A stretch of 32,000 bases of DNA from positions 1,560,001 through 1,592,000 of the forward strand of contig NC_003364.1 in NCBI RefSeq assembly GCF_000007225.1. The letters are read 5' to 3'. This document shows positions 631 through 26,784 of this stretch, in pieces. Made by a program: the position numbers and the translations under genes. Positions within the stretch are counted from its first letter, which is position 1; each line of letters opens with the position of its first letter. Below the pieces are notes generated by a model. It worked only from the letters and a program-made list of their open reading frames with translations, did not search any database and was not told the origin of the DNA. This stretch comes from Pyrobaculum aerophilum str. IM2 (lineage in GTDB: Archaea; Thermoproteota; Thermoprotei; Thermoproteales; Thermoproteaceae).

Positions 631-2034
631 ATGTATGACGTTGTAGTCCTCGGGGGCGGCAGCGCTGGCGTGGCCGCCGCCGTGAAGGCGGCGCAACTAG
701 GGGCTAAAGTAGCCGTTGTAAACTCAGGGCCTCTCGGGGGTACTTGTGTTAATGTTGGCTGTGTGCCCAGCAAATTTCTCATCAGAGCGGCTCAGCTAAA
801 ACGCTACGCAGAACGCCCCTTCTTCAAGGGCATTTCCGCCAAAGTGGAGGTGGCTTTTGACGCGCTGTTGCAACACATGAAGGAAGTGGTGGAGGAGTTG
901 CGCAGGGAGAAATACGAGGAGGTTTTGAAGTATTACGACGTCGACATTATAGAGGGATACGGCTACTTAAAAGATGCAAAGACCGTGAAAGTAGGGGAGA
1001 GGGAGGTGCGGGGCGAGAAGATAATAGTGGCCACTGGGGCCAGGCCTAGGGTGCCTGAGATCCCGGGCCTTAAAGAGGCCATGGCGCGAGGGATGGCCTT
1101 CACCAACGAGGAGTTTTTTAAACTTGATCATATGCCCAGCTCTATAGTGTTTATCGGCGGCGGCGCCATAGCCGCCGAGCTGTCGCAAGCGCTGGCGAGG
1201 CTGGGGATAGAGGTGGCCGTAATATACCGCAGCTCTTTTTTAAAATACGAGGAGGAGATTGCCTCCAAATTCGTCGAAGAGCTTTTAGCAAACGAAGGCG
1301 TCCGCTTAATAAAAGCCGCGGTCACTGCGGTGGAAATTAGGGGCAGGGAGGTGGAGGTGAGACACTCAGGGGGCTCCGTTAGGGCCGAGGCCCTCTTCGT
1401 GGCGGCTGGAAGGGCGCCCAATATTGAGCCGCTTGGGGGCCTCCTAAAACTGGGGCCTAACGGCGGCGTTTTAGTCAACGAGAGGATGGAGACCTCCCTC
1501 CCAGGCGTTTACGCCGCGGGAGACGTCACGGGGGGTTTAGAGGGCGCGCGCTTCTTAGAAAACGCCGCCGCCAGACAAGGCGTTGTGGCGGCGGTAAACG
1601 CCATGGGGGGAAATGCCAAGTTCAACCCCCTGGCGGTTCCCCGCGTGGTCTTCACAGATCCGGCAGTCGCCAGCGTGGGCCTCAGGGAGGAGGACATGAT
1701 TAAAGGCGGCATAGGGTGTCGTTGTAGAGCCGCGCCTATTGAGGCAGTCGCGGCAGGGTGGACTAAGGGGCAGACAACGGGGTTTATAAAAATCAACACA
1801 TACCCAGAGACTTGGAAAGTATCTGTAAAGAGGGGGAAAATAGCGGGAGCTTTAGTCGTTGCGCCGGAGGCAGAGGAGTTAATAAACGTCTTCGCCATGG
1901 CGATTCAGCTGGGGCTCACGGTAGAAGACTTGATTGAGTGGCTACCCAGTTTCCCCTCTTACGGAGAGGCCCTGAGGCTGGCCGCGCTTGCCTTTTATAC
2001 AGATCCCACTAAACTGAGCTGTTGCGGCGGGTAA
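631..2034 (+). CDS. merA: mercuric reductase-like pyridine nucleotide-disulfide oxidoreductase (MerA family, no N-terminal HMA domain)
   Basis: 467 aa. FAD fold VVVLGGGSAGVAAA; redox-active disulfide motif GGTCVNVGCVPSK; second dinucleotide fold VFIGGGAIAAE. The C-terminus, ...YGEALRLAALAFYTDPTKLSCCGG, carries a vicinal Cys pair like the MerA tail ...LSCCAG. Confidence 0.75.
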   Translation: MYDVVVLGGGSAGVAAAVKAAQLGAKVAVVNSGPLGGTCVNVGCVPSKFLIRAAQLKRYAERPFFKGISAKVEVAFDALLQHMKEVVEELRREKYEEVLKYYDVDIIEGYGYLKDAKTVKVGEREVRGEKIIVATGARPRVPEIPGLKEAMARGMAFTNEEFFKLDHMPSSIVFIGGGAIAAELSQALARLGIEVAVIYRSSFLKYEEEIASKFVEELLANEGVRLIKAAVTAVEIRGREVEVRHSGGSVRAEALFVAAGRAPNIEPLGGLLKLGPNGGVLVNERMETSLPGVYAAGDVTGGLEGARFLENAAARQGVVAAVNAMGGNAKFNPLAVPRVVFTDPAVASVGLREEDMIKGGIGCRCRAAPIEAVAAGWTKGQTTGFIKINTYPETWKVSVKRGKIAGALVVAPEAEELINVFAMAIQLGLTVEDLIEWLPSFPSYGEALRLAALAFYTDPTKLSCCGG

Positions 2035-2189: not shown

Positions 2190-2516
2190 ATGGAGATAGA
2201 TTACGCCGGGCTGAAGCACTTTGGCGTTGACGGCGAGCCGATAGGGGCGGATAGAGTCGGCGAGTTTCTCAAAATCCCCGGCGTTGTGGTAGACAAGCTG
2301 GCGCCGGGACAACACGTCGACTTTGTAACCCTGAGAGTTAGACATGAGGGAAAAGGCGTGGTCTCCTTCGCCAAGTCGCACCACGCCTTCGTCGAGCTGT
2401 TACGGCTTGAGCCAGGGGACGCCTTCCTTCTGTACTGCACATGCCCGATAGTGGACAAATTCCTAGTCATAACCAGAGAGGGAGAAACGGTTAAGCTGAT
2501 TTACAAAAGGCTTTGA
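2190..2516 (+). CDS. hypothetical small protein (108 aa) with a CTC motif (LYCTCPIV)
   Basis: The plus-strand frame has GC-rich third positions like the neighbouring genes and its own TATA-like box. The minus-strand alternatives (2142..2384, 2201..2470) look like shadow ORFs. The 3' end overlaps the convergent SQR-like gene by 16 nt. Confidence 0.5.
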   Translation: MEIDYAGLKHFGVDGEPIGADRVGEFLKIPGVVVDKLAPGQHVDFVTLRVRHEGKGVVSFAKSHHAFVELLRLEPGDAFLLYCTCPIVDKFLVITREGETVKLIYKRL

Positions 2517-3691
2517 GCCTCTAAAATTATTTTTTTCATCGCGTTCATCCACTGGTATTTCGCCTCGGCGTTTTCTCTTGAGGGGCCGTAGATATTTCGC
2601 CACAATATGTCGCCGTATATAGGCCACCACGCCTTTGCGCCTCTAACAGCCTCTTGGGGAGTTAGCCTAACGGCGTCTTCGCTGTATAAAAATCCCGGGG
2701 GTTTAGCCTCTAGCCCCATATCCTCTAATATTTTGGCGGAGGCCACTAACGCCTCATAAAAAGCCGCCCATCCGGTCTTTACCACGTGCCACACCACATC
2801 GCCTACTGCATATATATCGTCCCAGCCCAGCGCCCTCATATTGTCGTCTACTCTAATATAGCCAAATTCCCCCTCCCTCGCAAGCCCTGCCTCCACCAGC
2901 CACGGCCACCCCCTATGTGGAGGAGTCCACACGAGGCTGTCATATTTCACCACATCGCCGTCGTCTAATACCAACTCATTGGCCCGCACCTCCACCACCT
3001 CGTGTCCTCCGATAAAACCTATTCCCCTCTCTTCCATTAAAGAGGCTACCTTATCGCCCAGCCCGGATATTTGGTGTACAAACTCCGCCGGTATTTCCTT
3101 TACGCCCGAGACTACAGAGATCTCGGCCTGTGGATTTAGCCACTTTATTAAAAAGGCCATTTCATAAGGCGCAGAGGTGCATCGATAAGGCAAACCTGGG
3201 TGGGCAATTACCACGCGGCCGCGTGCATTTCTCAACGCGCCTATATTAGACAGGACGTTACTATCATCGTAAATATTTACATATTTTGCGCCCGGCTCAA
3301 TTGAGACATCCTCATACGCCAGCCTAATCCCCGGGGCCAGCACTAAATAGCGGTATTGAAAAACGCCTGCTGTAGTGTAGACAAGCCTATTGCCGGGATC
3401 CACTGCAAACGCCTCCCCCCTTATGTATTTCTCAAACCTCGTGGCATATTCCCCAGGCTGAGCCAAGCCGAGGACAATATCCTCCTTAGCAGGGCCCACG
3501 ACGTAATATTCGCCCCTCTCTATTACTACTACGTCTAAACCCTTTAGGTTTTTTACAATTGTAGATCCCGCGAGGCCTCCCCCCACTACAACCACGTCGG
3601 CTTTTCTAATACGGGGTCTTGTCAACAAATAGCCGCCGACAGCGCCCGCGGCAATGGCGGCGACGAATTTTAGAAAATCTCGCCGTTTCAT
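2501..3691 (-). CDS. Tat-signal FAD-dependent oxidoreductase, sulfide:quinone oxidoreductase / flavocytochrome-c sulfide dehydrogenase-like
   Basis: 396 aa. The N-terminus MKRRDFLKFVAAIAAGAVGG has a twin-arginine motif plus a hydrophobic segment. It is followed by the FAD fold VVVVGGGLAGS. YRCTSAPYEMA resembles the xKCPGAPxE motif of the SQR family, and AVGDV...KTG lies near the C-terminus. The protein has only one Cys. Its start forms an ATGA overlap with the upstream gene. Confidence 0.75.
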   Translation of the reverse strand: MKRRDFLKFVAAIAAGAVGGYLLTRPRIRKADVVVVGGGLAGSTIVKNLKGLDVVVIERGEYYVVGPAKEDIVLGLAQPGEYATRFEKYIRGEAFAVDPGNRLVYTTAGVFQYRYLVLAPGIRLAYEDVSIEPGAKYVNIYDDSNVLSNIGALRNARGRVVIAHPGLPYRCTSAPYEMAFLIKWLNPQAEISVVSGVKEIPAEFVHQISGLGDKVASLMEERGIGFIGGHEVVEVRANELVLDDGDVVKYDSLVWTPPHRGWPWLVEAGLAREGEFGYIRVDDNMRALGWDDIYAVGDVVWHVVKTGWAAFYEALVASAKILEDMGLEAKPPGFLYSEDAVRLTPQEAVRGAKAWWPIYGDILWRNIYGPSRENAEAKYQWMNAMKKIILEAQSLL

Positions 3692-4443
3692 AGACTATGA
3701 TAAGCGTGTACCGCTGGGTGGTAGAGGTGGATTAACACCTCAGGCACGGCGTATAACATAACGCCGCCGAAGAGAGAAGCCCAGAATTTATACGAGCTAA
3801 GTCCCCCCATTAAAGAGGCGGCCACTAAATTATTTCTAAACATGGCGTATACTATCAACGCGGCTGATCCCGCCTGTGCGGTCGCCAATATGAGCCTGGG
3901 GTATATGTCTGTAGAGAGAGGAGGCAATACCCAATATGAAAGCCAGCCGGCGGGGAAAGTTATGGCAGGTACGGGCCAAGTCTTAAGAGCTGATTTTGTA
4001 GACGACGCCACAGCCCTCAGCACGAAAACCTCAACTCCTGCGAAAGTTATTAAGCCTGATAACAACAGCGGCTCTGCCAGCTCTGAATATCTGGGTAAAG
4101 AGTATACAGCTGAGGCAATCATTAGGCCGTAGGAGTAGTTATACAGCCCAAGCCCCAGGGCTAGGGCATCGCCGGGGCTGACTTTAGTGCCAGCCCTTAG
4201 AAAAACTAGGAAAGCAGCCGAGGTTATAATTACTGCATATAAGAAAAGCGGAATGAGATTCACAGGCCAGGCTACTGCAAGAGACTTGGGGAGGGAAGAG
4301 GCGTTGCCCCCAGCCATAAGAGCCATATGAGCCGCGGCCCCGCCCGCAATTGCGTAAACATACGGCCTAGTCCCCACTCTGAGCAATGGGAAAAACAGAA
4401 AATAAACAAAGAGGAAAAAGAGGGGTTCTTTTATGAAAATCAT
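3688..4443 (-). CDS. polytopic integral membrane protein (about 8-9 hydrophobic helices), unknown family
   Basis: I place the start at the ATG at 4443, which forms an ATGA overlap with the stop of the 4440..5738 gene. The ORF-track start at 4530 would overlap that gene by 91 nt. The C-terminal tail is His-rich: HLYHPAVHAYHSL. Confidence 0.6.
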   Translation of the reverse strand: MIFIKEPLFFLFVYFLFFPLLRVGTRPYVYAIAGGAAAHMALMAGGNASSLPKSLAVAWPVNLIPLFLYAVIITSAAFLVFLRAGTKVSPGDALALGLGLYNYSYGLMIASAVYSLPRYSELAEPLLLSGLITFAGVEVFVLRAVASSTKSALKTWPVPAITFPAGWLSYWVLPPLSTDIYPRLILATAQAGSAALIVYAMFRNNLVAASLMGGLSSYKFWASLFGGVMLYAVPEVLIHLYHPAVHAYHSL

Positions 4444-5738
4444 CTCCCCCAGATTTTTAGCCACTCGCCAGAGGGAATAGCCACAACCCATACTGCGGCA
4501 TCTGCCTTGAAATGTTTTACTACGGACCATGTTGATGTGTCAAGAACGACTAATCCACCTGCCCCGGCGAGATAAAAATACTTACCGTCTTGGCTGAACA
4601 CCCCCTGCACCGCGCTCTTTAAGTAATCTGGAACTACTTTAACCTCTTTAATTACTTGGTATGACGGCGGAAGAGATCTCACGTATACCCCAACGCCTGA
4701 CACCACAGTAACTACCTCATCCCTGGCCGGATTTTCAACAGCCATATATGCTATAGACGGATAACTGACCTCTTTTATAAGCCACGCAGTACCTCTATTT
4801 ACATCTATTTCTAACACAGCCTCATAGGGCTTGGTCTCGCTCTGTAGTATTCCGTATTGTGGCTTGTAATAACTCCAATAAGTCATGAAGGGCTCTGTAT
4901 ACGTCTGCTCTCCTGGCTTCTTGAAATAATATCTAGCCACCTCTCTCCCAGAGGGCACTTCTAAAACTAAGCCGTATTCAGGTTTATTTGGATCTTGATC
5001 TGCTTTCACTGGTATAAAGACGTACTTCCCGTCTGGAGAAGGCGCGACGTCACACGGATTAGCGTCTAAATTTACCACGTTGACTATCTCCATTTTCTGG
5101 AGGTCAATAAACACCACCCTTTGGGCTTGTCTTTGGCTGATAATTAAATACCTGCCATCTGGCGTGACGCCGGCGTACTGTCTAGTGAATTTATCATAAG
5201 TCTTCATAAGCTTTATATCTCTAAACGTCACTCTGTCAATAAAGGCGACATATGAGCCGTTGGGGTTTTCAAATAGTAAAATAAAATACGGCAAATTCCC
5301 CAGGAAATATCTCGGCGTCCACGTCTCTAAAGTGCTGGGCTTTGCCAGTCCCTTAAGGGTAGCGTATAAAACCTCATACACTGGAGAGCTGAGGGTGTAT
5401 TTCAAATCGATTTTAGCCACTACGTCGTTAGTAGAGGGGTCAATAACATATGCGTATAGGACATCCCCCTCTCTTATAGCTGCGTATACCAGACCGCGCG
5501 GCTTTACTTGTTGTTGCAACGCCTTTATTTGCTCCTCCCTCTGGGCCAGCGTCTTGTTAAGCTCTGTTATTTTAGTCTGTAGTTGGGATAGCTCCGACTT
5601 AAGCGTATCGGCCTCGGCTTTGGCTTTGCTGAGTTCTTGGGATAACTGCGCCACTTGGGAGGCATATTGTGTATACACTGCGACTAGCGCTATGAGAAGG
5701 ACGACAATAATTACTACTAAGATATAAGTCGCCTTCAT
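4440..5738 (-). CDS. membrane-anchored coiled-coil plus beta-propeller (YVTN/lactonase-like repeat) protein
   Basis: 432 aa. N-terminal TM helix YILVVIIVVLLIALVAVY, then about 60 aa of heptad-like sequence (QELSKAKAEADTLKSELSQLQTKITELNKTLAQREEQIKALQQQ). Recurring propeller-type motifs follow: TPDGRYLIIS, SPDGKYVFIP, SQDGKYFYLAG. Confidence 0.7.
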   Translation of the reverse strand: MKATYILVVIIVVLLIALVAVYTQYASQVAQLSQELSKAKAEADTLKSELSQLQTKITELNKTLAQREEQIKALQQQVKPRGLVYAAIREGDVLYAYVIDPSTNDVVAKIDLKYTLSSPVYEVLYATLKGLAKPSTLETWTPRYFLGNLPYFILLFENPNGSYVAFIDRVTFRDIKLMKTYDKFTRQYAGVTPDGRYLIISQRQAQRVVFIDLQKMEIVNVVNLDANPCDVAPSPDGKYVFIPVKADQDPNKPEYGLVLEVPSGREVARYYFKKPGEQTYTEPFMTYWSYYKPQYGILQSETKPYEAVLEIDVNRGTAWLIKEVSYPSIAYMAVENPARDEVVTVVSGVGVYVRSLPPSYQVIKEVKVVPDYLKSAVQGVFSQDGKYFYLAGAGGLVVLDTSTWSVVKHFKADAAVWVVAIPSGEWLKIWGR

Positions 5739-5739
5739 A

Positions 5740-6804
5740 TTATCCGCCGCAGGCTAGGGCTATTTGTCTCTTGCCGCCTAGCTGCACTGCTACTCCAGAG
5801 GCGCCGCTTTTCACAGCCACGTCGTAAAGCATTACATCAAGCTGCACAGTGTGGACGTTAAGAGACGGCACGAGTATCATGTGTAGCGCGCTGTCGCCGA
5901 CGATATACACTAAGCTACAAGTGGGATCGGCCCTAACCCTCAATCCCCCTACGTCAAGTGTCTTTATTAGTGATAAGTCTGGAACTCTCAGGGCATACGT
6001 CTTATCTGCGGTGATCACCAACATTATGCCTCTACAAGCCCGTAGATATTGGACCTCCCCACCCACTGTGGCCCTGGATATCTGCTTGCCGCTGAATCTC
6101 TCAAAGGAAATTACGTCATTGCCCTTAGCCACAAAGAAGTAGTAGGCCCCTACGAATAGCTTATCGCCGCCAACTCCGAACTCCCTCAGCTGCTCAAGAT
6201 CTTCTGAGAGGACATAAAGTTTTTCTCCCGTTAGAACATATACCTCATTCTCATCTGGCATGGCCACTAGATCTCTCACATCACTGATTTTTTCACTACC
6301 CTTTTCCTCTAATTCAGGAACGCCGAGCCTATAGATACCCTCCTCGGCCCCAACATAAATATCATTCCCCATTAGTGATGCCGCCTTAATTCCCTTGATA
6401 TACAGTCTAGTATATATATCTTGACCTTTAATTACATATACATATTCAGAAGAAATAAATATAGTATATCCTGCGACATCGCCTACATAAATTATTTTCT
6501 CATTTAAATTTAGAGGTTGTACAAGTAATTGTGTACCCATGGGAGTTAACATAAGTGATTTGTCCGCAGTATATGCCACTAGGTAAATGTCGGGAGGTGG
6601 AGCCTGTGCCTCAGATAGTAGTTTATAGGCATATTGCAGAGTGCCTGTATGTACGTAATAACCCACGGCTATTCCTATGGCTAGCCCTATAGCAATTCCC
6701 AATAGGATGTAACTGCTACGTTTTTCCTTCTTTACAGGTTCTTCAAGCGGGATCTCGGCCATGATATGCCATGTCTCATAATTTAAAAAATATTTTGTTA
6801 ACAT
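5740..6804 (-). CDS. membrane-anchored beta-propeller-like protein ending in a C-terminal Cys-Gly-Gly tail
   Basis: 354 aa from the ATG at 6804. An alternative ATG at 6762 (MAEIPLEEP...) also has a TATA-like box about 26 nt upstream. TM helix YILLGIAIGLAIGIAVGYYV. The remainder is a repetitive beta-rich sequence (IYVG, VYVL, LFVG and similar). The C-terminus reads ...GGKRQIALACGG followed by the stop. The stop lies 1 nt from the next gene's ATG. Confidence 0.65.
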   Translation of the reverse strand: MLTKYFLNYETWHIMAEIPLEEPVKKEKRSSYILLGIAIGLAIGIAVGYYVHTGTLQYAYKLLSEAQAPPPDIYLVAYTADKSLMLTPMGTQLLVQPLNLNEKIIYVGDVAGYTIFISSEYVYVIKGQDIYTRLYIKGIKAASLMGNDIYVGAEEGIYRLGVPELEEKGSEKISDVRDLVAMPDENEVYVLTGEKLYVLSEDLEQLREFGVGGDKLFVGAYYFFVAKGNDVISFERFSGKQISRATVGGEVQYLRACRGIMLVITADKTYALRVPDLSLIKTLDVGGLRVRADPTCSLVYIVGDSALHMILVPSLNVHTVQLDVMLYDVAVKSGASGVAVQLGGKRQIALACGG

Positions 6805-6820
6805 GTTCTTAGTTCACTAG

Positions 6821-6840
6821 TTAATAACATATTTATATGG
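6821..6840. promoter_or_regulatory. shared AT-rich divergent promoter region containing the near-palindromic element CATATTTATATG
   Basis: It lies in the 52-bp gap between the divergent starts at 6804 (-) and 6857 (+), roughly 20-30 nt from each. Confidence 0.4.
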
Positions 6841-6856
6841 AAAATTGAGGCGAGAC

Positions 6857-7102
6857 ATGCCTAGCATTAAAAAAGTAGGTGATAATCTCTACGAGCTAGA
6901 CTTAAAGGGATATGTGTGTCCCTATCCGCAGATGTACACATCACAAGCACTGTCGAAACTGCCAAAGGGCAGTGTGTTAAAGGTTATAATAGATAATCCC
7001 CCCTCTATAGAGAACATAAAATCAGTGGCCCAGAAGGCCGGCGCAAAGTCTCTTCAAGTAGAGGCTAAGGGCGGCACGTGGGAGATCACAATTAACATAT
7101 AA
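6857..7102 (+). CDS. tusA: TusA/SirA-family sulfur carrier protein
   Basis: Canonical motif LDLKGYVCPYPQMYTSQAL (Cys-Pro-x-Pro) at the TusA position, followed by VLKVIIDNPPSIENI. I prefer the ATG at 6857 over the TTG at 6845, which sits only about 11 nt from the TATA-like box. Confidence 0.8.
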   Translation: MPSIKKVGDNLYELDLKGYVCPYPQMYTSQALSKLPKGSVLKVIIDNPPSIENIKSVAQKAGAKSLQVEAKGGTWEITINI

Positions 7103-7109
7103 TTAACTT

Positions 7110-7484
7110 ATGAAAGTAGGCGTAATCTTAACCTCTGACGACCCTGTGAAGCTGTACGAGGCTGGGACATATATAGCAACAGAGCTGGCCAGGGGGAATG
7201 AGGTGGTCGTTTTCGTCACGGGGAGGGCCACGTTGGCATTTGCGGGGAGGGCTGAGGTCTCGGAGACTCCGGAGGTTAAGAGGATGAAAGAGCTTCACGT
7301 AATGTGGGATGAGCTCTTCTCAGCTGCGAGGCCTATGGGCGTTAAGGTAATTGCGTGTGAAACCGCTAGTAAAATATTCGCAGTGGGCGAGGAGGAGTAC
7401 AAGAAAACAGGACTTGTAGACGTTGTGTCTTCTATGTATACCTTCTTAGAAGAGGTGGGCGAGGGAAGGGTTGTGGTGTTTTAA
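7110..7484 (+). CDS. DsrE/DsrF-like sulfur relay family protein
   Basis: 124 aa. The N-terminus MKVGVILTSDDP...VVVFVTGRA has a DsrE-like Rossmann-type beta-alpha pattern, and there is a single conserved-looking Cys in VIACETASKIF. It lies between tusA and yeeE with 7-nt and 1-nt gaps. Confidence 0.65.
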   Translation: MKVGVILTSDDPVKLYEAGTYIATELARGNEVVVFVTGRATLAFAGRAEVSETPEVKRMKELHVMWDELFSAARPMGVKVIACETASKIFAVGEEEYKKTGLVDVVSSMYTFLEEVGEGRVVVF

Positions 7485-7485
7485 T

Positions 7486-8733
7486 ATGCCGTTGCCCAAG
7501 TTTTTAAAAGAGCCGTGGAGGCCCGAGGTCGCGGGGGCTCTCATCGGACTAGTCGCCGTGTTGCAAATAATTGTCGTGAGGAGCCCGTGGTATATCACCG
7601 GCCCTGAGAATCAATTCGGAGGGTGGCTCTTCTACGTCCTCACAGGCGGATTATTAAATACAAAAGAGTGGGCATATTTTAATCCTAACTCCCCCATGTT
7701 CGTCGCGCCGGCCGCCGCGCCTTGGGAGCCGGCTAATAAGGAGTTTATGATCGTATGGGGGTTTATGCTAGGTGCCATGATCGCAAAGGCCATAGAGGGC
7801 AACTGGCGCCTTAGATGGCCTGCTAATAGGATGGTGGTATTACTGTCAATCATTGGCGGCCTTATGTTAGGCTTCGGCGCCAGGCTGGCGTTGGGATGTA
7901 ACGTGGGGAATTTCGTCGCCACTATTCAGTCCCTGGTCTTCTCGGGCTTTGTCTTCTTCCTGGGGATGGCCGTGGGTACTTTCATCTCTACGCGGCTTAT
8001 TGAAGATTTCTTAATGGAGAAAATGCACAAGTCCAAGCCTATTAGAATTGAATTGGGTTCTAATGTAGACAACCGTAAAGTATTGGCCTTCGCCCTAGCC
8101 GCAACCCTATTAACTACCCTGTATTGGTGGGGCCTTGGGATTTGGGCCGCTATCGCCTTCCTTTATCTGGGAATAGCATATGGCTTCTTCGGCTCTAAAG
8201 GCAATGTTTGCTTCACCTCTATGTTGAGAGACGGCTTTTGGTCGAGGCTAGCCCCCTACGGCGGAAACGCCAGGGCCATAGCCATAGCATTGGCCATTAT
8301 GATAACCGGAAACCTCGTGTTAAAATACGGCTTTGGGTGGCAGTACAGAGAGTTCTTATTCCCAGTGGGTGTTCACACTTTCCTCGGAGGCGTCCTCTTC
8401 GGCATAGGTATGGTTTTGGTGGCTGGCTGTAGCTTTAGTAGCGCTTATAGAAGCGGCGAGGGTAGCATACCGCATTTAATAGCGTGGTTTGGAATGGTGG
8501 CAGGCATGACAATATTATCTTACGTCTGGCCCTTCTTTTTCACTACGTCAATTTACTTATCTCCAGTGTTGCACTTTTACGACTTCTTTGGCGGAAATGT
8601 CGCCGCAGGCGCCGCCGCGGCTTATTCAGTGGCGTTATTCATCGCGCTTGTGGGGAGTTGGAGAGACGGCACATTACAGCGCTTAGTGCAAATACCTCCC
8701 TTAAAAATATTGGCGCCACGGCTCCATGTATAA
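7486..8733 (+). CDS. yeeE: YeeE/YedE-family sulfur (thiosulfate) transport membrane protein
   Basis: Polytopic membrane protein with Cys-containing motifs RLALGCNVGNF, GNVCFTSMLRDG and LVAGCSFSSAYRSGEG, as in the two-repeat YeeE/YedE architecture. The start is set at the ATG at 7486, 1 nt after the DsrE-like stop; the ORF-track start at 7471 is a TTG. Confidence 0.8.
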   Translation: MPLPKFLKEPWRPEVAGALIGLVAVLQIIVVRSPWYITGPENQFGGWLFYVLTGGLLNTKEWAYFNPNSPMFVAPAAAPWEPANKEFMIVWGFMLGAMIAKAIEGNWRLRWPANRMVVLLSIIGGLMLGFGARLALGCNVGNFVATIQSLVFSGFVFFLGMAVGTFISTRLIEDFLMEKMHKSKPIRIELGSNVDNRKVLAFALAATLLTTLYWWGLGIWAAIAFLYLGIAYGFFGSKGNVCFTSMLRDGFWSRLAPYGGNARAIAIALAIMITGNLVLKYGFGWQYREFLFPVGVHTFLGGVLFGIGMVLVAGCSFSSAYRSGEGSIPHLIAWFGMVAGMTILSYVWPFFFTTSIYLSPVLHFYDFFGGNVAAGAAAAYSVALFIALVGSWRDGTLQRLVQIPPLKILAPRLHV

Positions 8734-9904
8734 AAAACTTCTTTTTTCTTTAATTCCGCTGCTCCTCCTTCTTCTTTTTTTAATCCCAAGCCCCCAGCCG
8801 CCGAGTGAAGATACGTTTATAGTAGTGGGCGGGGGCCCGCCCTCAATTGCCCTATACGTAAACGGAGTTTATGTGGGCGGCGCCGCTCTAAACGACGTGT
8901 GGCCTAACTATACAATGTACGACGCGTTTCTCTGGGGAGATAAGCTAGTAGTCACCATAGCTGAAGTGAGTAAATGGGTGTACGTCTTCCACCTCCCCGA
9001 TTTCTCAAGGCCTGCTGTTGTGTTGAGAGCGCCGGGCAACGTGAGCCACTTCCTTTACTATACCCCGGAGGTGGCGCCGCTGAACGGATCTATCCTTTGG
9101 CTTGCAGTTTTTAACACAACTGAAAAACGGGGCTATATCTGCGCTTTAGATTTAGTGAATGAAGTCATTCAAAACTGCGTGCCCGTGGGGATTTACCCGC
9201 ACGCCCCCATTAAGCTGGGCTCTTCGGTAATTACTCCGCTTATAAGAGAGCCGTATTTAGTGTTTAAAGAGGGGGGGCGGATAGAGAGAAGGCTTGTCTC
9301 GAAGAGCTGGCCGCCGTATGTAAACGCCCACGATCCGCTTAGATATACATATTTCTCTTTCCACATGATTACCACAGACGGGCGTTATATATACGGCGAA
9401 GGCCACGCCATAGAGCCTGGGTATTTGCTATCGCCTATAACTGTCCACGCCCACTCGTATATAATTTCCATGACCCCCTCAGGGGAGGTTATTGCTTATT
9501 ATCCAACCTCAGCGCTTCCGCCTGGGCTACCGGGGCTGGCTGTGTGTAGGGGAAAGCTCTTTGCCACATCTCCCCTGGAGGGTGTGGTCTACGTCTTGTC
9601 CACGCCGGAATTAAAGCCTTTGTCTCTTTTAAAAGTCGGCAAAGTGCCATGGGGAGTCTTCGCAAATAGGGATTGTAGCAGAGTGTATGTTACTGACATC
9701 ATAGGCGGGTTTGTTTATGTAATAGACGTCGAAAGTCTATCTATAGTTAGGCGTGTAGAAACTCCAATGACGTGGCCCCACACAGTTATATTTATCGACA
9801 ACGCGGCCGCGGAGAGGCTAAAGACCGCCGTCTCTAAGAGATTCGCCTATAACTTTACTGTCTTTCCGCCTATACTCTCATGCGGAGATCTGCCGCCGAG
9901 CTGA
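8726..9904 (+). CDS. secreted YVTN-type beta-propeller repeat protein, His-rich
   Basis: Signal-like N-terminus MYKKLLFSLIPLLLLLLFLIPSP. A canonical YVTN-type repeat: VGKVPWGVFANRDCSRVYVTDIIGGFVYVIDVESLSIVRRV. Several N-x-S/T sequons and nine His residues, including VHAHS. Overlaps the yeeE stop by 8 nt. Confidence 0.7.
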   Translation: MYKKLLFSLIPLLLLLLFLIPSPQPPSEDTFIVVGGGPPSIALYVNGVYVGGAALNDVWPNYTMYDAFLWGDKLVVTIAEVSKWVYVFHLPDFSRPAVVLRAPGNVSHFLYYTPEVAPLNGSILWLAVFNTTEKRGYICALDLVNEVIQNCVPVGIYPHAPIKLGSSVITPLIREPYLVFKEGGRIERRLVSKSWPPYVNAHDPLRYTYFSFHMITTDGRYIYGEGHAIEPGYLLSPITVHAHSYIISMTPSGEVIAYYPTSALPPGLPGLAVCRGKLFATSPLEGVVYVLSTPELKPLSLLKVGKVPWGVFANRDCSRVYVTDIIGGFVYVIDVESLSIVRRVETPMTWPHTVIFIDNAAAERLKTAVSKRFAYNFTVFPPILSCGDLPPS

Positions 9905-10506
9905 AATACATACTCCTAATTACTGCCGTCTTTGCCGCTTTGTTGCTATTCCCTGTCTATTCCTCTCTATTTGTAAACAACAGCAGTGCGGCTGGAGGCT
10001 TGGGGCAAGCGTCGCGGATAACAGTGGAGTGTTACGAGCCGGGGGCGGAACCCACAGCGCAGGATTTTATACTGGTGAACCAGTTTAACAAGACAGTGGC
10101 TCTAAGCCAGTTGTGGGAGACGCCTACACTTTTAATTTTCGCCTATACCTATTGCCCTGACGTGTGTCCTATTATAAACCTTGTTTTAAACGCCACTAGG
10201 CCGAAGTTGCCCGGGGTGATAATCGCCGAAATTACCTTAGATCCCGAGAGGGATACTCCCCAGCGACTATACGCCTACAGCGTTGGGAATAAATACAACT
10301 GGACTTTCCTCACAGGCCCCCGTGAGGTGTTAGAAAAAGTGTGGCGTAGCTACGGCGTTATAATAGAGCGCCGTGGAGACTATATAGCCCATAATGTTTT
10401 GTTTATAGTGATACACAAGGGGAATATTTTGGGAGTAATTAAGGGGTTGCCGCCGCCAGAGGATTTGGCTAAAAACGTCGAGAGGATACTTAGGAGATGC
10501 CGATAG
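9880..10506 (+). CDS. SCO1/SenC-family thioredoxin-fold copper chaperone/thiol-disulfide protein, membrane anchored
   Basis: N-terminal TM helix ILLITAVFAALLLFPVY; signature FAYTYCPDVCP (CxxxC); a downstream His in DYIAHNVLFIV, as in SCO proteins. Overlaps the upstream gene by 25 nt. Confidence 0.8.
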   Translation: MRRSAAELKYILLITAVFAALLLFPVYSSLFVNNSSAAGGLGQASRITVECYEPGAEPTAQDFILVNQFNKTVALSQLWETPTLLIFAYTYCPDVCPIINLVLNATRPKLPGVIIAEITLDPERDTPQRLYAYSVGNKYNWTFLTGPREVLEKVWRSYGVIIERRGDYIAHNVLFIVIHKGNILGVIKGLPPPEDLAKNVERILRRCR

Positions 10507-10610: not shown

Positions 10611-11180
10611 ATGCTCAGGCTGACTCCAACTGCCAAACTTGTGATTAATTACATGGCGATTAGGCATTTAGTAGACGGCGCTACGTATGTGACGTTTAAA
10701 GAGCTTGTGGAGAGGCTGGGCATTTCCGAGAGGAGGCTAAGGGCTTTAATGCAAGAGCTCCGGCAGGCTGGCCTTGTGGAGGCTTATATAAATCCCTCTA
10801 GGGGCAGGGCGCTCTTATACCGGTTGGCGTTTAACAATTTTAATTTCGACTCGCCTATTGTAGAGCCCGGGCTCTACTACATAGACCTCCCCCCAAATGC
10901 CAAAATCCCCGGCGACTTAACGCTGAGGACTTTTTCAATAATAAGGGCGTCTAAGCTCCTGCTCTACACCCCCGTTTTTGCCAATAGAAAGAGCTTATTC
11001 ACCCTCACGAAATGTACGTGTACTATAAAGCCCTACAGCGAGGAGGCCTTGGCTGAGGCGCGCGCCGTGGCTGATTCCCAAGGCGTGGCCACTGTGGTTT
11101 TTAGCTCAGAAGTAGATCGCGTGGAGATAAACGGCGCGAATTTAATTTCTTCTGCCGGCGTCAAGATCTACAAGGCGTAA
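10611..11180 (+). CDS. winged-helix DNA-binding protein fused to a tetrapyrrole-methylase/RsmI-like N-terminal subdomain (paralog 1)
   Basis: 189 aa. The N-terminal segment TFKELVERLGISERRLRALMQELRQAGLVE is wHTH-like. The C-terminal part, EPGLYYIDLPPNAKIPGDLTLRTFSIIRASKLLLY...KCTCTIKPYSEE, resembles the LYxVxTPIGNxxDITLRAL start of the RsmI/TP-methylase fold. About half the positions are identical by eye to the ORF at 18568..19128. Confidence 0.6.
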   Translation: MLRLTPTAKLVINYMAIRHLVDGATYVTFKELVERLGISERRLRALMQELRQAGLVEAYINPSRGRALLYRLAFNNFNFDSPIVEPGLYYIDLPPNAKIPGDLTLRTFSIIRASKLLLYTPVFANRKSLFTLTKCTCTIKPYSEEALAEARAVADSQGVATVVFSSEVDRVEINGANLISSAGVKIYKA

Positions 11181-11184
11181 AGGG

Positions 11185-11745
11185 CTAGAGGAAGTCCACT
11201 ATTACGTTATTAGCCGCGTGGTAGAGAAAACAGCTCCATGTGGATTTAGTATATAGGAAGAGGCCGCCCGCAATTAAGGCCCAGAAGAAAATATAGACGG
11301 AGAGCGCCGGGCAGAACCGTAAGTGTATAGCCGCGAAGGCGGCTGAGGTAATCAGCAAAGCCCCCGCAGTCCCCACTGCTTTATTTAGCCTGGGCATGGA
11401 GTATCCTCTGAAAAAGCCCTCTTCAAAAAAGGCGGCTCCCAAGGCCCATATGGCCACGGGAACTGCGTTTAGCCCCGATGTGGAATATCCCCATTTCGGC
11501 CACGACATGCCCAGGGCTGACAGCATTAAGTTTATAGGCCACCACAACATAAAGGCGGCGCCTAGAGCCGCAAACGCGTATAGAATTTCCCTGCGCCCCA
11601 GGCCGCCTGTGTAAATACTCCGGAAAGCCCCACTCCAAGTGCCGTACCCCTCAGCCCGGGTTATTGCCAAGAGAAGGACAAAGCCTATTACCTGCGCCGT
11701 TGTGTACAAGAGGGCGTACCAGGGGTTGTCCGGCGGCGGCTGCAT
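11185..11745 (-). CDS. CPBP-family (CAAX/Abi-like) intramembrane glutamic endopeptidase
   Basis: Motifs FFEEGFFRGY (EExxxR), FAAIH and YHAANN within a multi-TM protein. Confidence 0.75.
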   Translation of the reverse strand: MQPPPDNPWYALLYTTAQVIGFVLLLAITRAEGYGTWSGAFRSIYTGGLGRREILYAFAALGAAFMLWWPINLMLSALGMSWPKWGYSTSGLNAVPVAIWALGAAFFEEGFFRGYSMPRLNKAVGTAGALLITSAAFAAIHLRFCPALSVYIFFWALIAGGLFLYTKSTWSCFLYHAANNVIVDFL

Positions 11746-11840: not shown

Positions 11841-12713
11841 ATGATTCCGTCTTGGGTTTCCCTAAGGGCCGGAGATTATGAAAAAATAATTAACGTGAGG
11901 AGGGCGTTAAGCAGACACGGGATTTATACAGTGTGCGAGGGGGCTAAGTGCCCCAATATTTTCCACTGCTGGGGCGAGGGGACGGCCACCTTCATGATTC
12001 TAGGGGAGGTCTGCACAAGGGCGTGTAGATTCTGCGCCGTGCGCACTGGTAATCCGAGGGGGTATGTGGACTGGGGCGAGGTGGATAGGCTTGTTGAGGC
12101 TGTTAGAGAGCTCGGGCTTAAATACGTCGTGGTGACCTCAGTGGCTAGAGACGACCTCCCCGACGGAGGGGCCTCGGTATTTGCGGCAGTTGTGAAAAAA
12201 CTACGCGAGGTGGGTTGCGTCGTGGAGGTTTTAGTGCCCGACTTCGGCGGAAGTCCGGCCTCGGTAAAAACTGTGGTTAGCTCGGGCCCAGATGTGTTCG
12301 CCCACAACGTGGAAACAGTGAGACGGCTTACGCCGCTAGTTAGAGACCGCAGGGCGGGTTATGAGCGTTCGCTATCTGTGTTGAAATACGCAAAAGAATT
12401 CGGCGCACCCCTCACTAAATCAGGCTTGATGTTAGGGCTTGGGGAGACGTTTGAGGAGGTGGTGGAGACTTTAGAGGATTTGAGGAGGGCTGATGTGGAC
12501 ATTGTGACTATAGGCCAGTATATAAAACCCAGCGGCTCGCCTCGTCATTTAAACCCCGTTAGGTACGCGACTCCCGAAGAGTTCGCCAAAATTAAAGAGG
12601 TGGCCGTGTCCCTGGGCTTTAAGGCCGTTGCCTCAGGCCCTTTAGTGCGTAGCTCATATAAGGCTTACAGTCTATATAGAGAAGCTTTAAAAAATATAGT
12701 ATACTTAGGTTAA
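11841..12713 (+). CDS. lipA: lipoyl synthase
   Basis: N-terminal auxiliary-cluster motif CEGAKCPNIFHC (Cx4Cx5C), radical-SAM motif CTRACRFC (CxxxCxxC), and the C-terminal RSSY motif (VRSSYKA). Confidence 0.9.
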   Translation: MIPSWVSLRAGDYEKIINVRRALSRHGIYTVCEGAKCPNIFHCWGEGTATFMILGEVCTRACRFCAVRTGNPRGYVDWGEVDRLVEAVRELGLKYVVVTSVARDDLPDGGASVFAAVVKKLREVGCVVEVLVPDFGGSPASVKTVVSSGPDVFAHNVETVRRLTPLVRDRRAGYERSLSVLKYAKEFGAPLTKSGLMLGLGETFEEVVETLEDLRRADVDIVTIGQYIKPSGSPRHLNPVRYATPEEFAKIKEVAVSLGFKAVASGPLVRSSYKAYSLYREALKNIVYLG

Positions 12714-12726
12714 CTTTTATATATTA
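12714..12726 (+). promoter_or_regulatory. TATA-like box (cttttatatatta) about 24 nt upstream of the E1-alpha ATG at 12744
   Basis: It lies in the 30-nt lipA-E1alpha spacer. It suggests the dehydrogenase genes can be transcribed independently of lipA. Confidence 0.45.
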
Positions 12727-12743
12727 TTTTCGAATTTACTACC

Positions 12744-13862
12744 ATGTTAGAAATAAGTTTAGAAATTCCTACACAATTTAAAACAGAGGTTAAAGAGCCT
12801 CAAGTCTTTAGAGTGCTGGGCCAAGACGGCTCTCCGCTGGAGACGTATGAAGTGGGCTATAAGCCCAGCGAGGGGGAGTTGGCCAAGGCGTATAGGTGGA
12901 TGGTATTGGGGAGGGTGTTGGACAGATACGCCTTGATGTATCACAGAATGGGCAAGGTGAAATCCACCTACGGCCCCCACGAGGGCCACGAGGCCGCAGA
13001 CGCGGGCACTGCCCTGGCGCTGAGGCCTGAGGACTGGGTGGCGCCTTATTACAGAAATTTAACTCTGCTCATAGCCAGGGGCGTCCCGTTGGAGGTTATA
13101 TGGGCTAAGTTCTTCGCCAAGTTGGGGGATCCGGACAAGGGAAGGAATTTAACAATTGAGTGGGGCGGGTTTAAACAGTGGAGGATTTTATCCATCGGCG
13201 CGCCCATTGGCCACCAGTATATATACGCAGCTGGCTTCGCCTACGCCTTAAAGTATTTAAAGAAAAAAGAGGTGGTGGCCGCCTATATAGGAGACGGCGG
13301 GACTTCCACAAACGGCTTCCACACAGGCTTGAACTTCGCAGGAGTGTTTAAAGTTCCCGCGGCCTTTTTCATTTACAACAACCAGTACGCCATATCTGTC
13401 CCAGTCTCTATACAAACCGCCGTCTCTAGGCTGTCCACTAAAGCCGCGGCGTACGGCCTGGTGGGGGTTTCCGCAGACGGCATGGATTTGCTGGCGGTGG
13501 TGAAGACGGCAATGTGGGCGGTGGAGAAGGCCAGGAGGGGGGAGCCTACGTTAGTGGAATACGTCATGTATAGATTCGGCCCCCACACCACAGCGGATGA
13601 TCCCTTGACTAAGTACAGAGATCCCAAAGAGGTAGAGGAGTACAGGAGGTGGGACCCCCTGGCTAGGCTTGAGAAATTTTTAATCCGCCAGGGGATTTAC
13701 AGCGAGGGCGACGTGAAGACAATTTGGGAGGAGGCCGAGAGGGAGGTTAAAGAGGCGGCAAAAGAGGCCGAGGCCCTGCCCGATGTGCCCGCGGAGGAGC
13801 TTATAAACGATGTATATAGCTTTGTGCCCAAGTCGCTGAGGGAGTGGCTGGAGTGGTTATGA
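12744..13862 (+). CDS. 2-oxoacid dehydrogenase E1 component, alpha subunit (ThDP-dependent)
   Basis: ThDP-binding motif [36 protein letters not shown] (GDG...NN). Size and gene order are typical of E1alpha. Confidence 0.9.
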
Positions 13863-14824
13863 TGGCCAATATGGCAAAGGCCATTAACATGGCGCTTCAC
13901 GAAGAAATGGAGAGAGATGAAAGAGTAGTGGTGCTGGGAGAAGACGTGGGGAAAAAGGGAGGGGTTTTCCTCGTGACTGAAGGGCTTTATGAGAGGTTCG
14001 GCCCGGAGAGAGTTATAGACACGCCGTTAAACGAAGGGGGGATTTTAGGGTTCGCCATGGGAATGGCCATGGCGGGGCTGAAGCCCGTGGCCGAGATACA
14101 ATTCGTCGACTTCATCTGGCTAGGCGCTGATGAGCTTTTAAACCACATAGCCAAACTGAGGTATAGGTCCGGGGGGAATTACAAGGCCCCCCTCGTCGTG
14201 AGGACTCCCGTCGGCTCGGGCACAAGAGGCGGGCTTTACCACAGCCAATCCCCAGAGGCCATCTTCGTCCATACGCCGGGCCTAGTTGTGGTCATGCCCT
14301 CGACGCCGTATAACGCCAAGGGCTTATTAAAAGCCGCCATTAGGGGGGATGACCCCGTGGTATTCCTCGAGCCCAAAATACTATACAGAGCCCCCAGGGA
14401 GGAGGTGCCCGAGGGGGACTACGTAGTGGAGATAGGCAAGGCTAGAGTGGCCAGGGAGGGCGACGACGTCACTTTAGTGACCTACGGCGCCGTGGTACAT
14501 AAAGCGCTGGAGGCGGCCGAGAGGGTAAAGGCGTCGGTAGAGGTTGTGGACTTACAGACTCTCAACCCCCTTGATTTTGACACTGTGTTAAAAAGCGTTT
14601 CTAAAACCGGCAGGCTTATTATAGCACACGACTCGCCGAAAACGGGAGGGCTCGGCGCAGAGGTGGCGGCGCTAGTAGCAGAGAAGGCGCTAGATAGACT
14701 GACGGCGCCTGTAATTAGGCTTGCGGGCCCTGACGTCCCCCAGAGCCCAATTGCCCACGACGCGGCCTACGCCCCCACGGTGGAGAGAATAATAAAGGCC
14801 ATAGAATACGTGATGAGGTACTAA
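13859..14824 (+). CDS. 2-oxoacid dehydrogenase E1 component, beta subunit
   Basis: The N-terminus [31 protein letters not shown] is typical of E1beta. The ATG at 13859 forms an ATGA overlap with the E1alpha stop; the ORF-track start at 13844 is a GTG. Confidence 0.9.
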
Positions 14825-23069: not shown

Positions 23070-23071
23070 AG

Positions 23072-26575: not shown

Positions 26576-26763
26576 AAGAACACGCTCCTCTGAACCCCCT
26601 TGTCCCGCTTCCCCATTAATTTTTTAGCCGTGAAACAAGTATAGTCCTCTTCGCCGTTATATAAACTGAGCAATCCGTCTATCGCCTCTGGAACTTCTGT
26701 ATAAAGCCTTTCAAGATCTTTTTTCACCTGTTCGTAGTGTTTTAAGAGGGCTTCAAAGGACAC
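26572..26763 (-). CDS. small hypothetical protein (63 aa) translationally coupled to the molybdoenzyme gene
   Basis: GTG start 21 nt after the fdhD stop. Its TGA overlaps the alpha-subunit ATG (ATGA). The predicted sequence is helical and charged. No recognisable family. Confidence 0.4.
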   Translation of the reverse strand: MSFEALLKHYEQVKKDLERLYTEVPEAIDGLLSLYNGEEDYTCFTAKKLMGKRDKGVQRSVFL

Positions 26764-26784
26764 GGATTATAGGAGCAGGCCTTT

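Follow-up and report, generated by a model that had tools for sequence, protein, structure and literature searches.

A conserved eight-gene cluster in Pyrobaculum aerophilum and its relatives as a candidate extracytoplasmic sulfur module

Layout of the locus and its shared promoter region

The locus studied here lies in the genome of Pyrobaculum aerophilum IM2, within a stretch of 32,000 nucleotides of contig NC_003364.1 (positions 1,560,001 to 1,592,000) that was analysed as a whole and is called the window below. Two divergent runs of genes encode nine products, labelled P1, P2, P3, P4, TusA, DsrE, channel, P8 and SCO1. An earlier description made from the letters alone (hereafter the sequence-only reading) had interpreted them as a cell-surface machine processing sulfur, or copper and sulfur. 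The open reading frame (ORF) map of the window contains all nine genes, and the gaps and overlaps described between them were confirmed on the sequence. The features are as follows (coordinates refer to the window):

2501..3691, minus strand: P1, 396 amino acids (aa), flavoprotein of the FccB/SQR superfamily, FAD-binding, with a twin-arginine translocation (Tat) signal; GenBank AAL64326, 'flavoprotein reductase, conjectural'
3688..4443, minus strand: P2, 251 aa from the ATG at 4443, polytopic membrane protein of a novel family
4440..5738, minus strand: P3, 432 aa, signal-anchor, coiled-coil stalk of about 60 aa and YVTN-type beta-propeller
5740..6762, minus strand: P4, 340 aa, type-II-anchored compact beta-propeller; the ORF is open to 6804
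6763..6856, no strand assigned: divergent promoter region, 94 bp, GC content 0.27
6857..7102, plus strand: TusA-family sulfur carrier, 81 aa
7110..7484, plus strand: DsrE-like sulfurtransferase, 124 aa
7486..8733, plus strand: membrane channel of the YedE/YeeE family (Sulf_transp), 415 aa
8726..9904, plus strand: P8, or PAE2637 (AAL64333), 392 aa, signal/anchor and seven-bladed YVTN-type beta-propeller
9880..10506, plus strand: SCO1/SenC copper chaperone or thiol-disulfide protein, 208 aa, membrane-anchored, annotated 'senC homolog'

The genes of each run are tightly joined. On the minus strand, start and stop codons overlap as TCAT (ATGA on the minus strand, read from the sequence) at 3688-3691 and 4440-4443, and a gap of 1 nt, at 5739, lies between P3 and P4. 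The plus-strand junctions are a gap of 7 nt between TusA and DsrE (7103-7109), a gap of 1 nt at 7485 between DsrE and the channel, whose ATG is at 7486, an overlap of 8 nt between the channel and P8 genes (8726-8733) and one of 25 nt between the P8 and SCO1 genes (9880-9904). Five products had been read as carrying an N-terminal signal, anchor or Tat motif and two more as polytopic. Hydropathy agrees, with one N-terminal hydrophobic segment in each of P1, P3, P4, P8 and SCO1 and several in both P2 and the channel, and the Tat profile was passed for P1.

The intergenic region between the two runs had been described as an AT-rich promoter region of 52 bp. Its composition stands and its length does not. 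The start of P4 at 6804 was dropped in favour of the more likely ATG at 6762, since orthologues and gene callers begin at MAEIPLEE (340 aa); orthologues keep the N-terminus MxEEIPLEE, and this ATG aligns with the start in Pyrobaculum ferrireducens and Thermoproteus uzoniensis. The shared region is therefore 94 bp long, with a GC content of 0.27 against 0.51 for the window. Several of its elements are kept in the alignment of P. aerophilum, P. ferrireducens and T. uzoniensis: TTTAAAAA (6782-6790), about 24 nt upstream of the minus-strand ATG; GTTAATAAC (6820-6828) and TTTATAT (6832-6838), upstream of the TusA ATG; and GTTAACA/TGTT repeats (6797-6807) between the TATA-like boxes. This arrangement could correspond to two outward-facing archaeal TATA boxes with an operator common to both operons, and the conservation of these elements would fit a co-regulation of the two. 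The elements repeated between the two TATA-like boxes are GTTAACA, TGTTAAC, GTTCAC and GTTAATAAC, and the equivalent regions in the other loci are L012 8050-8142 and L011 8032-8123.

At the other end of the minus-strand run, an ORF of 108 aa on the plus strand (2190-2516) runs towards P1 and shares 16 nt with the 3' end of that gene. It was rejected as a core member, being conserved only in P. ferrireducens (78% identity) and belonging to no family.

The eight-gene core and its lineage-specific neighbours

The conservation of the nine genes in related genomes had been set in advance as a check of the sequence-only reading. Eight of the families (P1 to P4, TusA, DsrE, the channel and P8) are indeed co-located elsewhere, in five gene orders, and the ninth, SCO1, is not. 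A scan of the genome collection with the P8 alignment gave 2 loci under strict peptide patterns, and the neighbourhoods were retrieved by exact-protein look-ups. The orders by lineage are given here, '<-' standing for a minus-strand run and '->' for a plus-strand run:

P. aerophilum, P. ferrireducens and T. uzoniensis: P4-P3-P2-P1 <- and -> TusA-DsrE-channel-P8
P. oguniense: TusA-DsrE-P3-P2-P1 <- and -> P4-channel-P8
P. calidifontis: P8-P2-P1 ->, <- DsrE-TusA, P4-P3-channel ->
divergent metagenome lineage (6.8-kb contig): DsrE-P3 <-, -> TusA-membrane protein-P1, <- P8-P4

The genes for TusA and the DsrE-like protein are present in all versions of the cluster and adjoin each other in four of the five orders. 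Wherever it is seen, the channel gene adjoins P8 or P4/P3, and P4 is adjacent to P8 in the divergent lineage. The P1, P3, P4 and P8 families occur in the same organisms, namely P. aerophilum, P. ferrireducens, P. oguniense, P. calidifontis, T. uzoniensis and hot-spring metagenome lineages. The presence of the eight families together in five gene orders indicates that their clustering is more than chance. The metagenome-assembled genome (MAG) of a Pyrobaculum sp. (DAITPC010000006, locus L008) contains at 10001-10209 a remnant of P8, made up of 44 residues and a 9-residue ...ACGDLPPS tail, next to a MerA gene, and P1 to P4 and the channel are absent from this 20-kb locus. Since only the P8 remnant is left there, the module was apparently lost as a unit. 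A search for SCO1 homologues up to 10 kb from the cluster, tblastn included, was negative in P. ferrireducens, T. uzoniensis, P. oguniense and P. calidifontis, so the core is made up of eight genes. As far as the databases searched allow us to judge, this eight-gene module appears restricted to Pyrobaculum, Thermoproteus and hot-spring metagenome lineages.

The flavoprotein P1 matches Pyr_redox_2 (PF07992; 69 bits against a cut-off of 26.1, E = 5e-19) and, in the same profile search, FCSD_central; its TAT_signal_seq score of 19.6 bits passes the NCBIfam cut-off of 16.7. The nearest solved structure is FccB of flavocytochrome c sulfide dehydrogenase (FCSD; 1fcd, 3e-13), followed by the SQR of Acidianus. 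Eleven orthologues share an invariant twin-arginine motif, the FAD motif (GGGxxG) and C171 in HPGLPYRCTSAPYE. This residue, the sole cysteine of P1, occupies the position of FCSD Cys161 and SQR Cys160 in the context P-x-[RK]-C-x-x-A-P-Y-E. The second redox cysteine (FCSD C337/SQR C356) was not found in the 11 orthologues, which have an invariant YSED motif in its place. Two cytoplasmic SQR paralogues encoded beside the T. uzoniensis cluster, on the contrary, keep both cysteines and have no Tat signal. The P1 orthologues form 13 clusters at 90% identity among 5.8 billion proteins, after which the score drops from 265 to 77 bits, the level of ordinary SQRs. Given the lone C171 with YSED, the two-cysteine paralogues devoid of a Tat signal and this gap in the scores, P1 is a distinct exported single-cysteine clade outside every described SQR type. 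The earlier label of SQR-like flavoprotein was thus right about the superfamily and wrong about the type, as P1 is nearer to FccB than to any SQR type and its second catalytic cysteine is missing.

None of the five arrangements contains a cytochrome c gene, and the constant neighbour of P1 is P2, which is encoded directly upstream of it in all five. P2 has no Pfam or NCBIfam match, even at E<=5. It has five to seven hydrophobic segments, no cysteine at all and five invariant residues (H39, K53, N205, E235 and H246). The ORF in the P2 position of the metagenome lineage is too diverged for BLAST. Around the module, non-Tat two-cysteine SQR-like genes, each paired with a PF07849 (HMP/DUF1641) gene, are found in some genomes: one such pair in P. 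aerophilum (locus L001 1-1298, upstream of the window) and two in T. uzoniensis (L011 41-3725). There is thus a wider sulfide-related neighbourhood around the module in those genomes.

The three products that had been taken for beta-propeller-like proteins keep this assignment, P4 and P8 through AlphaFold2 models compared with Foldseek and P3 through its profile. P3 and P8 give weak propeller matches (Cytochrom_D1, YncE, YVTN repeat and L-NosZ). P3 also matches coiled-coil families at residues 23-80, and its best match among solved structures is the S-layer YVTN propeller of Methanosarcina (1l0q, 6e-15). The P8 profile finds the same structure best (2e-13), and the NCBI name of P8 is 'YncE family protein'. 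P8 and P3 are accordingly propellers of the YVTN/YncE type, which is an assignment of fold only. P4 has no Pfam or NCBIfam match. Its model (predicted local distance difference test, pLDDT, of 82.1) consists of a helix (17-52), a beta domain (59-319, pLDDT >90) and a tail (321-340, <50), and Foldseek relates it to WD40/BamB-type propellers in the PDB (TM-score ~0.4-0.64). The model of P8 (pLDDT 84.7) is a seven-bladed propeller with a tail at 385-392 (<50). Its PDB matches are generic propellers (the S-layer YVTN protein 1l0q, NirN, amine dehydrogenase heavy chains and AztD), NosZ coming at rank 49. The TM-scores of the P4 and P8 matches are mostly ~0.4-0.65, with 8-18% identity. As expected by the sequence-only reading, no propeller (P3, P4 or P8) matches a characterised enzyme in the Foldseek and profile searches against solved structures.

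The three propeller families are small. Exhaustive HMMER searches of 1.8 billion proteins yielded 6 representatives of P3 at 50% identity, followed by a gap from 209 to 90 bits, and 11 and 13 clusters at 90% identity were obtained for P4 and P8, respectively, from the 5.8-billion-protein database. P4 and P8 are distant paralogues (hhalign probability 88%, E = 3e-6), in which the cysteines of A-C-R-G and D-x-x-C-S align. Three of their cysteines are equivalent, the third being on the disordered tail. P3 was rejected as a further paralogue of P8 (hhalign probability 2%).

Among the exported proteins, P1 has 1 cysteine, P3 has 1, P4 has 3 and P8 has 5, all odd counts, and every one of them is invariant in the family alignments, down to 33-38% identity. 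Such numbers would fit structural disulfides plus one free thiol per protein. The lone cysteine of P3, C229, stands in an N227-P228-C229-D230 motif that is invariant down to 36% identity. From the topology of the fold, this residue (in N-P-C-D-V-A-P-S-P-D-G, where the inner strand of a blade begins) would be located at the mouth of the central channel. In P4 the invariant cysteines are C243, C282 and C338, and the protein ends in ...RQIALACGG-COOH, on the disordered 20-residue tail and with the cysteine third from the end; the LACGG ending is unchanged in the divergent metagenome lineage, at 36-38% identity. The invariant cysteines of P8 are C139, C151, C274, C317 and C386, the last in a tail ...LACGDLPP (...LSCGDLPPS for PAE2637). 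P8 also has invariant histidines, H108, H159, H227 and H352, with H243 nearly so. Three of them, in S-H108-F, P-H159-A and P-H352-T, are the equivalent, on three blades, of the position of C229 in P3, a pattern that suggests a metal or acid-base site. As for P4, its juxtamembrane residues 41-58 (T-L-Q-Y-A-Y-K-L-L-x-x-x-Q-x-P-P-P-D) are nearly invariant throughout the family and more conserved than the propeller itself, which suggests that they keep up a contact with a membrane partner.

The remaining core products belong to families known from sulfur transfer, and the earlier TusA, DsrE-like and Sulf_transp calls, like that of SCO1, are upheld by the Pfam cut-offs. TusA (PF01206, 72.6 bits against 28.6, E = 2e-20) has a single cysteine, the active-site Cys21 in VCPYP (CPYP). 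The DsrE-like protein (PF02635, 28.2 bits against 22.7) also has only one, Cys83 in IACET, which aligns with the cysteine of its nearest solved structure, a DsrE-like protein of Sulfolobus (2qs7). The channel is a clear Sulf_transp protein (PF04143, 133.8 bits against 27, E = 1e-38). Its C138, C242 and C315 align with C293, C22 and C91 of the YeeE structure from S. thermophila, with the two halves in the other order. The transporter, earlier called YeeE, is thus confirmed in its family, but it is the YedE/FdhT model, not TsuA/YeeE, with which it is collinear. In NCBIfam, P1, TusA and the channel all come closest to selenium-associated families, at scores far below the cut-offs; for P1 these include the SQR_III selenoprotein subtype and Nterm_to_SelD. 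This resemblance may be a coincidence or a hint of chalcogen breadth.

The genes around this core differ between lineages. SCO1 itself is a regular member of its family (PF02630, 64.1 bits against 22.8, E = 2e-17) with a CxxxC motif (C92 and C96, in YCPDVCP) and a downstream histidine, and its nearest structure is ScoI of B. japonicum (4wbj, 3e-12). From its distribution, it is an accessory of the P. aerophilum lineage, translationally coupled there and outside the conserved core. On the other side of the module, the MerA-like gene noticed next door by the sequence-only reading is well founded:

631-2034, plus strand: MerA, TIGR02053 equivalog (629.5 bits against a cut-off of 454.45), redox motif CVNVGC, ending in ...SCCGG

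Only two contexts place it beside the module, the P. aerophilum lineage and the decayed locus L008. This MerA has no N-terminal metal-binding domain, and a copy 60% identical to it lies about 7 kb from the module in P. calidifontis. A copper or mercury flavour was rejected as a general feature, as SCO1 and MerA are not co-conserved with the module; the framing in terms of Cu-S or thiophilic metals is hence abandoned, these two genes being lineage-specific neighbourhood and not part of the machine.

Directly downstream of SCO1, and in the P. aerophilum lineage only, come a regulator of the MarR/HTH_36 type (10611-11180, plus strand) and an Rce1-like (CPBP/CAAX-type) intramembrane protease (11185-11745, minus strand), the latter a curious presence beside the C-terminal cysteine tails of P4 and P8. 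Further on, 11841-18001 (plus strand) encodes a lipoyl synthase, the E1-alpha, E1-beta, E2 and E3 components of a 2-oxoacid dehydrogenase complex and a lipoate-protein ligase, a block that is also found near the module in P. ferrireducens, inverted. Finally, 22221-27519 (minus strand) contains an FdnG-like molybdopterin oxidoreductase (1167 aa; about 400 bits with formate dehydrogenase models, below their cut-offs), a 4Fe-4S subunit, two ORFs without family and an FdhD/NarQ sulfurtransferase.

A proposed sulfur pathway and competing scenarios

The function proposed for this module is based on family membership, conserved cysteines, predicted structure and synteny. No Sox family was detected in the window and, in agreement with the sequence-only reading, which had found no match to any known sulfur system, the Pfam and NCBIfam searches gave no Sox, Dsr, sHdr, Psr or SOR family. 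Since the eight genes are co-conserved, the promoter elements are conserved, no propeller matches a characterised enzyme and no known system is matched, an extracytoplasmic sulfur module linked to import and relay is the best reading. We estimate at roughly 50% the probability that the cluster encodes an extracytoplasmic, membrane-anchored, thiol-based sulfur module coupled to import and relay. The earlier idea of a cell-surface sulfur machine linked to import and relay is thus retained on the strength of the co-conservation and of the families involved, without its Cu-S part.

The steps of such a pathway could be the following. P1 would leave the cytoplasm through the Tat pathway with FAD already bound, and its signal anchor, P2 or both would keep it at the membrane. 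P2, which has two invariant histidines, may be the exit of the electrons from P1 to the quinone pool. Because P1 has no second cysteine, the usual intramolecular disulfide or trisulfide is impossible, and it is proposed that the missing thiol is supplied in trans by a partner protein. P3, P4 and P8 would be in the same membrane and would each have one unpaired invariant cysteine; the best candidates are the tail cysteines C338 of P4 and C386 of P8, C229 of P3 being another. The tails of P4 and P8 might work like the swinging GGCGG arm of SoxY. Once sulfide, or the sulfane sulfur of thiosulfate or polysulfide, had been oxidised, the carrier cysteine would hold a persulfide. The carrier would hand this to the three-cysteine channel of the YedE/YeeE type, and Cys21 of TusA and Cys83 of the DsrE-like protein would take over the sulfur in the cytoplasm for oxidation or biosynthesis. 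In its most specific form, this would be a Sox-independent archaeal route, in which P1 is completed in trans by the tail cysteine of P4 or P8 and the persulfide is fed directly to the YedE-type channel, and it would be the thiosulfate/sulfide route of P. aerophilum; we regard this precise version as tentative and rather doubtful. P. aerophilum can reportedly use thiosulfate as an electron donor, and we are not aware of any Sox, TQO or SOR system assigned to it.

Several observations weigh against a sulfur module of this kind. The propellers match generic scaffolds and S-layer-type YVTN repeats, so their role could be structural, and a relay of thiols alone does not account for the invariant histidines of P8. 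The tails end in LACGG or contain LACGD, which differs from GGCGG, and in the divergent P8 about 13 residues follow the tail cysteine. Within families, every score is far short of its curated cut-off: P1 stays below the cut-off for SQR type III (NF049943, 67.9 bits against 525); the nearest NCBIfam family of TusA, YedF, is not reached (1e-15, 57 bits against 79); and the channel, collinear with the YedE/FdhT model (4e-44), fails its cut-off (151 bits against 350) and matches the TsuA models only in part (85 bits against 400 and 51.6 against 645). Moreover, the hosts have no obvious sulfur phenotype in common and range from strictly anaerobic sulfur or iron reducers to facultative aerobes, and a literature search with locus tags (including TUZN_109x, Pogu_138x and PAE263x) found no paper naming these genes.

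Other scenarios may explain the same genes. The one closest to the pathway above keeps all of its components and gives them a protective or opposite purpose, that is, the detoxification of reactive sulfane sulfur at the surface or its export through the channel. P. aerophilum is said to be inhibited by elemental sulfur, and SQR-family enzymes often serve in sulfide detoxification; yet the module is also present in T. uzoniensis, reportedly a sulfur respirer. The direction of transport by YedE/YeeE-type proteins has been established only for TsuA and SoxT (PMC11582611), which leaves room for export, but the characterised trios of TusA, DsrE and YeeE-family proteins act in uptake and inward relay (PMC11582611, PMC11073785), and we consider a protective or opposite purpose unlikely. 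It seems still less probable that the same thiol chemistry, through selenotrisulfides, is applied to selenium or to another chalcogen or metalloid (selenite, elemental selenium or selenide). The best NCBIfam matches of the channel (YedE/FdhT, 4e-44), TusA (YedF, 1e-15) and P1 are linked to selenium, and P. aerophilum and P. ferrireducens are said to reduce selenate and selenite. Nevertheless, those scores are far below the curated cut-offs and amount to a family resemblance, the neighbourhoods examined have no SelD, SelA or SelB genes, and we know of no selenoproteins in these Crenarchaeota.

The histidines of P8 lend themselves to a different interpretation, in which P8 would be the catalytic heart of the system, a propeller enzyme with histidine-ligated copper or another metal matured by SCO1, analogous to methanethiol oxidase, thiocyanate dehydrogenase or NosZ and, at the extreme, the missing nitrous oxide (N2O) reductase of P. 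aerophilum. Four to five histidines are invariant and, judging from the topology, three at the first position of inner strands (S/P-H-x) would face the channel, the gene of a SCO1 with a complete CxxxC and histidine site overlaps that of P8 by 25 nt, and methanethiol oxidase, in which four histidines are conserved, is a copper propeller encoded near SCO1 (PMC5739008). In addition, P. aerophilum has yielded no canonical NosZ (PMC3512248, PMC11052009), and the propellers P3 and P8 give weak matches to L-NosZ (7e-5 and 3e-5). However, these matches reach 21.5 and 22.8 bits against a cut-off of 700 over about 80 residues of generic YVTN blades, SCO1 is missing from the cluster in all other lineages, P8 has no cupredoxin (CuA) domain and fewer histidines than the seven of CuZ, P3 has no invariant histidine, and no sequence match links P8 to NosZ or SBP56 (no PF05694 at E<=0.01 and no PDB match). 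T. uzoniensis, which has P8, is reportedly an anaerobe, and the tight linkage with TusA, DsrE and YeeE-type genes speaks for sulfur. Orthologues of P8 are moreover present in P. calidifontis and P. ferrireducens, which have NosZ (PMC3512248). A metalloenzyme role for P8 is therefore improbable, and its identity as an N2O reductase was rated unlikely in view of scores 30x below the cut-off, of generic blades, of the missing CuA and of orthologues found alongside NosZ. Lastly, there might be no single machine, the propellers and P2 being S-layer-associated envelope proteins beside an ordinary sulfur-assimilation trio and a sulfide-detoxifying flavoprotein. The P3 and P8 profiles match the archaeal S-layer YVTN propeller best, and P4 resembles scaffolding propellers. 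This scenario appears very improbable, since the genes have stayed clustered through four independent rearrangements, in which the two sets became interleaved (for instance in P. oguniense), the families are found together one-to-one and not elsewhere, start codons overlap stop codons among propeller, membrane protein, flavoprotein and channel genes, and every cysteine is invariant.

Several aspects of the module deserve attention. The transfer of sulfur from the extracytoplasm to the cytoplasm is only now being resolved in bacteria (from SoxY to SoxT to TusA), and we know of no model of such a transfer for neutrophilic hyperthermophilic archaea. The module is a small, genetically delimited candidate in a long-standing model organism, its invariant cysteines and histidines can be mutated individually, and a natural 'half' FccB/SQR could show how this class of enzymes works with a carrier protein. 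Should the sulfur interpretation fail, the module would remain a conserved surface complex in a well-studied archaeon.

Comparison with known systems

A close parallel in design is the bacterial Sox pathway. SoxY has its carrier cysteine in a C-terminal GGCGG arm (PMC6067878, PMC5336275), and SoxY-bound sulfane sulfur is passed on to the YeeE-like SoxT and then to TusA in bacteria (PMC11582611). The combination of Sox, SoxT, TusA, DsrE3C and sHdr in Hyphomicrobium denitrificans resembles the module in having an extracytoplasmic carrier with a tail cysteine, a three-cysteine channel of the YeeE family and transferases of the TusA and DsrE types. SoxF, a Tat-exported FccB-like flavoprotein, accompanies the Sox carrier and recalls P1. 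In contrast to Sox, no SoxXA, SoxB, SoxYZ or SoxCD homologue was found here in the Pfam and NCBIfam searches; the putative carriers are membrane-anchored propellers instead of the small SoxYZ fold and end in LACGG or LACGD instead of GGCGG; the flavoprotein has one cysteine, not two; and the channel has the YedE order. The neighbourhoods examined do not contain sHdr or LbpA genes either. The tail of P4, a disordered segment whose third-last residue is a cysteine and whose last two are GG, may thus be likened to that of SoxY by analogy, not by membership.

P1 can be compared with FccAB and SQR: it has their fold and FAD motif, its one cysteine is the first catalytic cysteine in its conserved context, and it has a Tat signal as FccB does. 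It differs from them in having YSED in place of the second redox cysteine and in lacking the FAD-linking cysteine, and from FccAB in that there is no gene for a cytochrome c subunit and that the constant partner is the polytopic P2. In the YeeE/YeeD (TsuA/TsuB) and YedE/YedF pairs, too, a TusA-like partner is encoded alongside a Sulf_transp channel that has three cysteines in its pore (PMC11582611). The channel of the module differs in its length (415 aa), in its halves, which follow the YedE order, and in scoring below all subfamily cut-offs; its gene is also translationally coupled to that of an exported propeller, and a DsrE-like protein is encoded with it.

Among exported propellers, P8 resembles methanethiol oxidase (SBP56), thiocyanate dehydrogenase and NosZ (including its lactonase-type clade III) in being seven-bladed with invariant histidines probably arranged around a central channel. 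Methanethiol oxidase also has a SCO1 gene as a neighbour, as does P8 in P. aerophilum, where SCO1 overlaps its 3' end (PMC5739008). Unlike these copper enzymes, with which there is no sequence or specific fold match, P8 has no conserved SCO1 and no CuA, and it has five invariant cysteines. The tetrathionate hydrolase of Sulfolobales and similar proteins offer another parallel, that of an exported propeller in the archaeal pseudo-periplasm, which acts there on an inorganic sulfur compound, and in Sulfolobaceae an exported propeller and YeeE, both induced by sulfur, are described together (PMC11323534). These proteins lack a cysteine tail and are not homologous to P3, P4 or P8. The propeller of tetrathionate hydrolase is PQQ-like and has eight blades.

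A precedent for the proposed role of the tails exists within the enzyme superfamily of P1 itself. In MerA, with its ...CC tail, and in the large thioredoxin reductases, with their GCUG tail, a flexible C-terminal tail with cysteine carries electrons or a thiophilic ligand to the centre next to the flavin, and the MerA of 631-2034 ends in ...SCCGG. The tail belongs there to the same polypeptide or dimer, whereas here it would come from a separate propeller protein, which is purely hypothetical. Overall, the general design is known from bacteria: an extracytoplasmic carrier with a flavoprotein, a channel of the YeeE family, and TusA with DsrE. What appears to be new here, judging from the families recovered, is a set of extracytoplasmic proteins unrelated to Sox, with four new families (P2, P3, P4 and P8) and a single-cysteine clade of flavoproteins.

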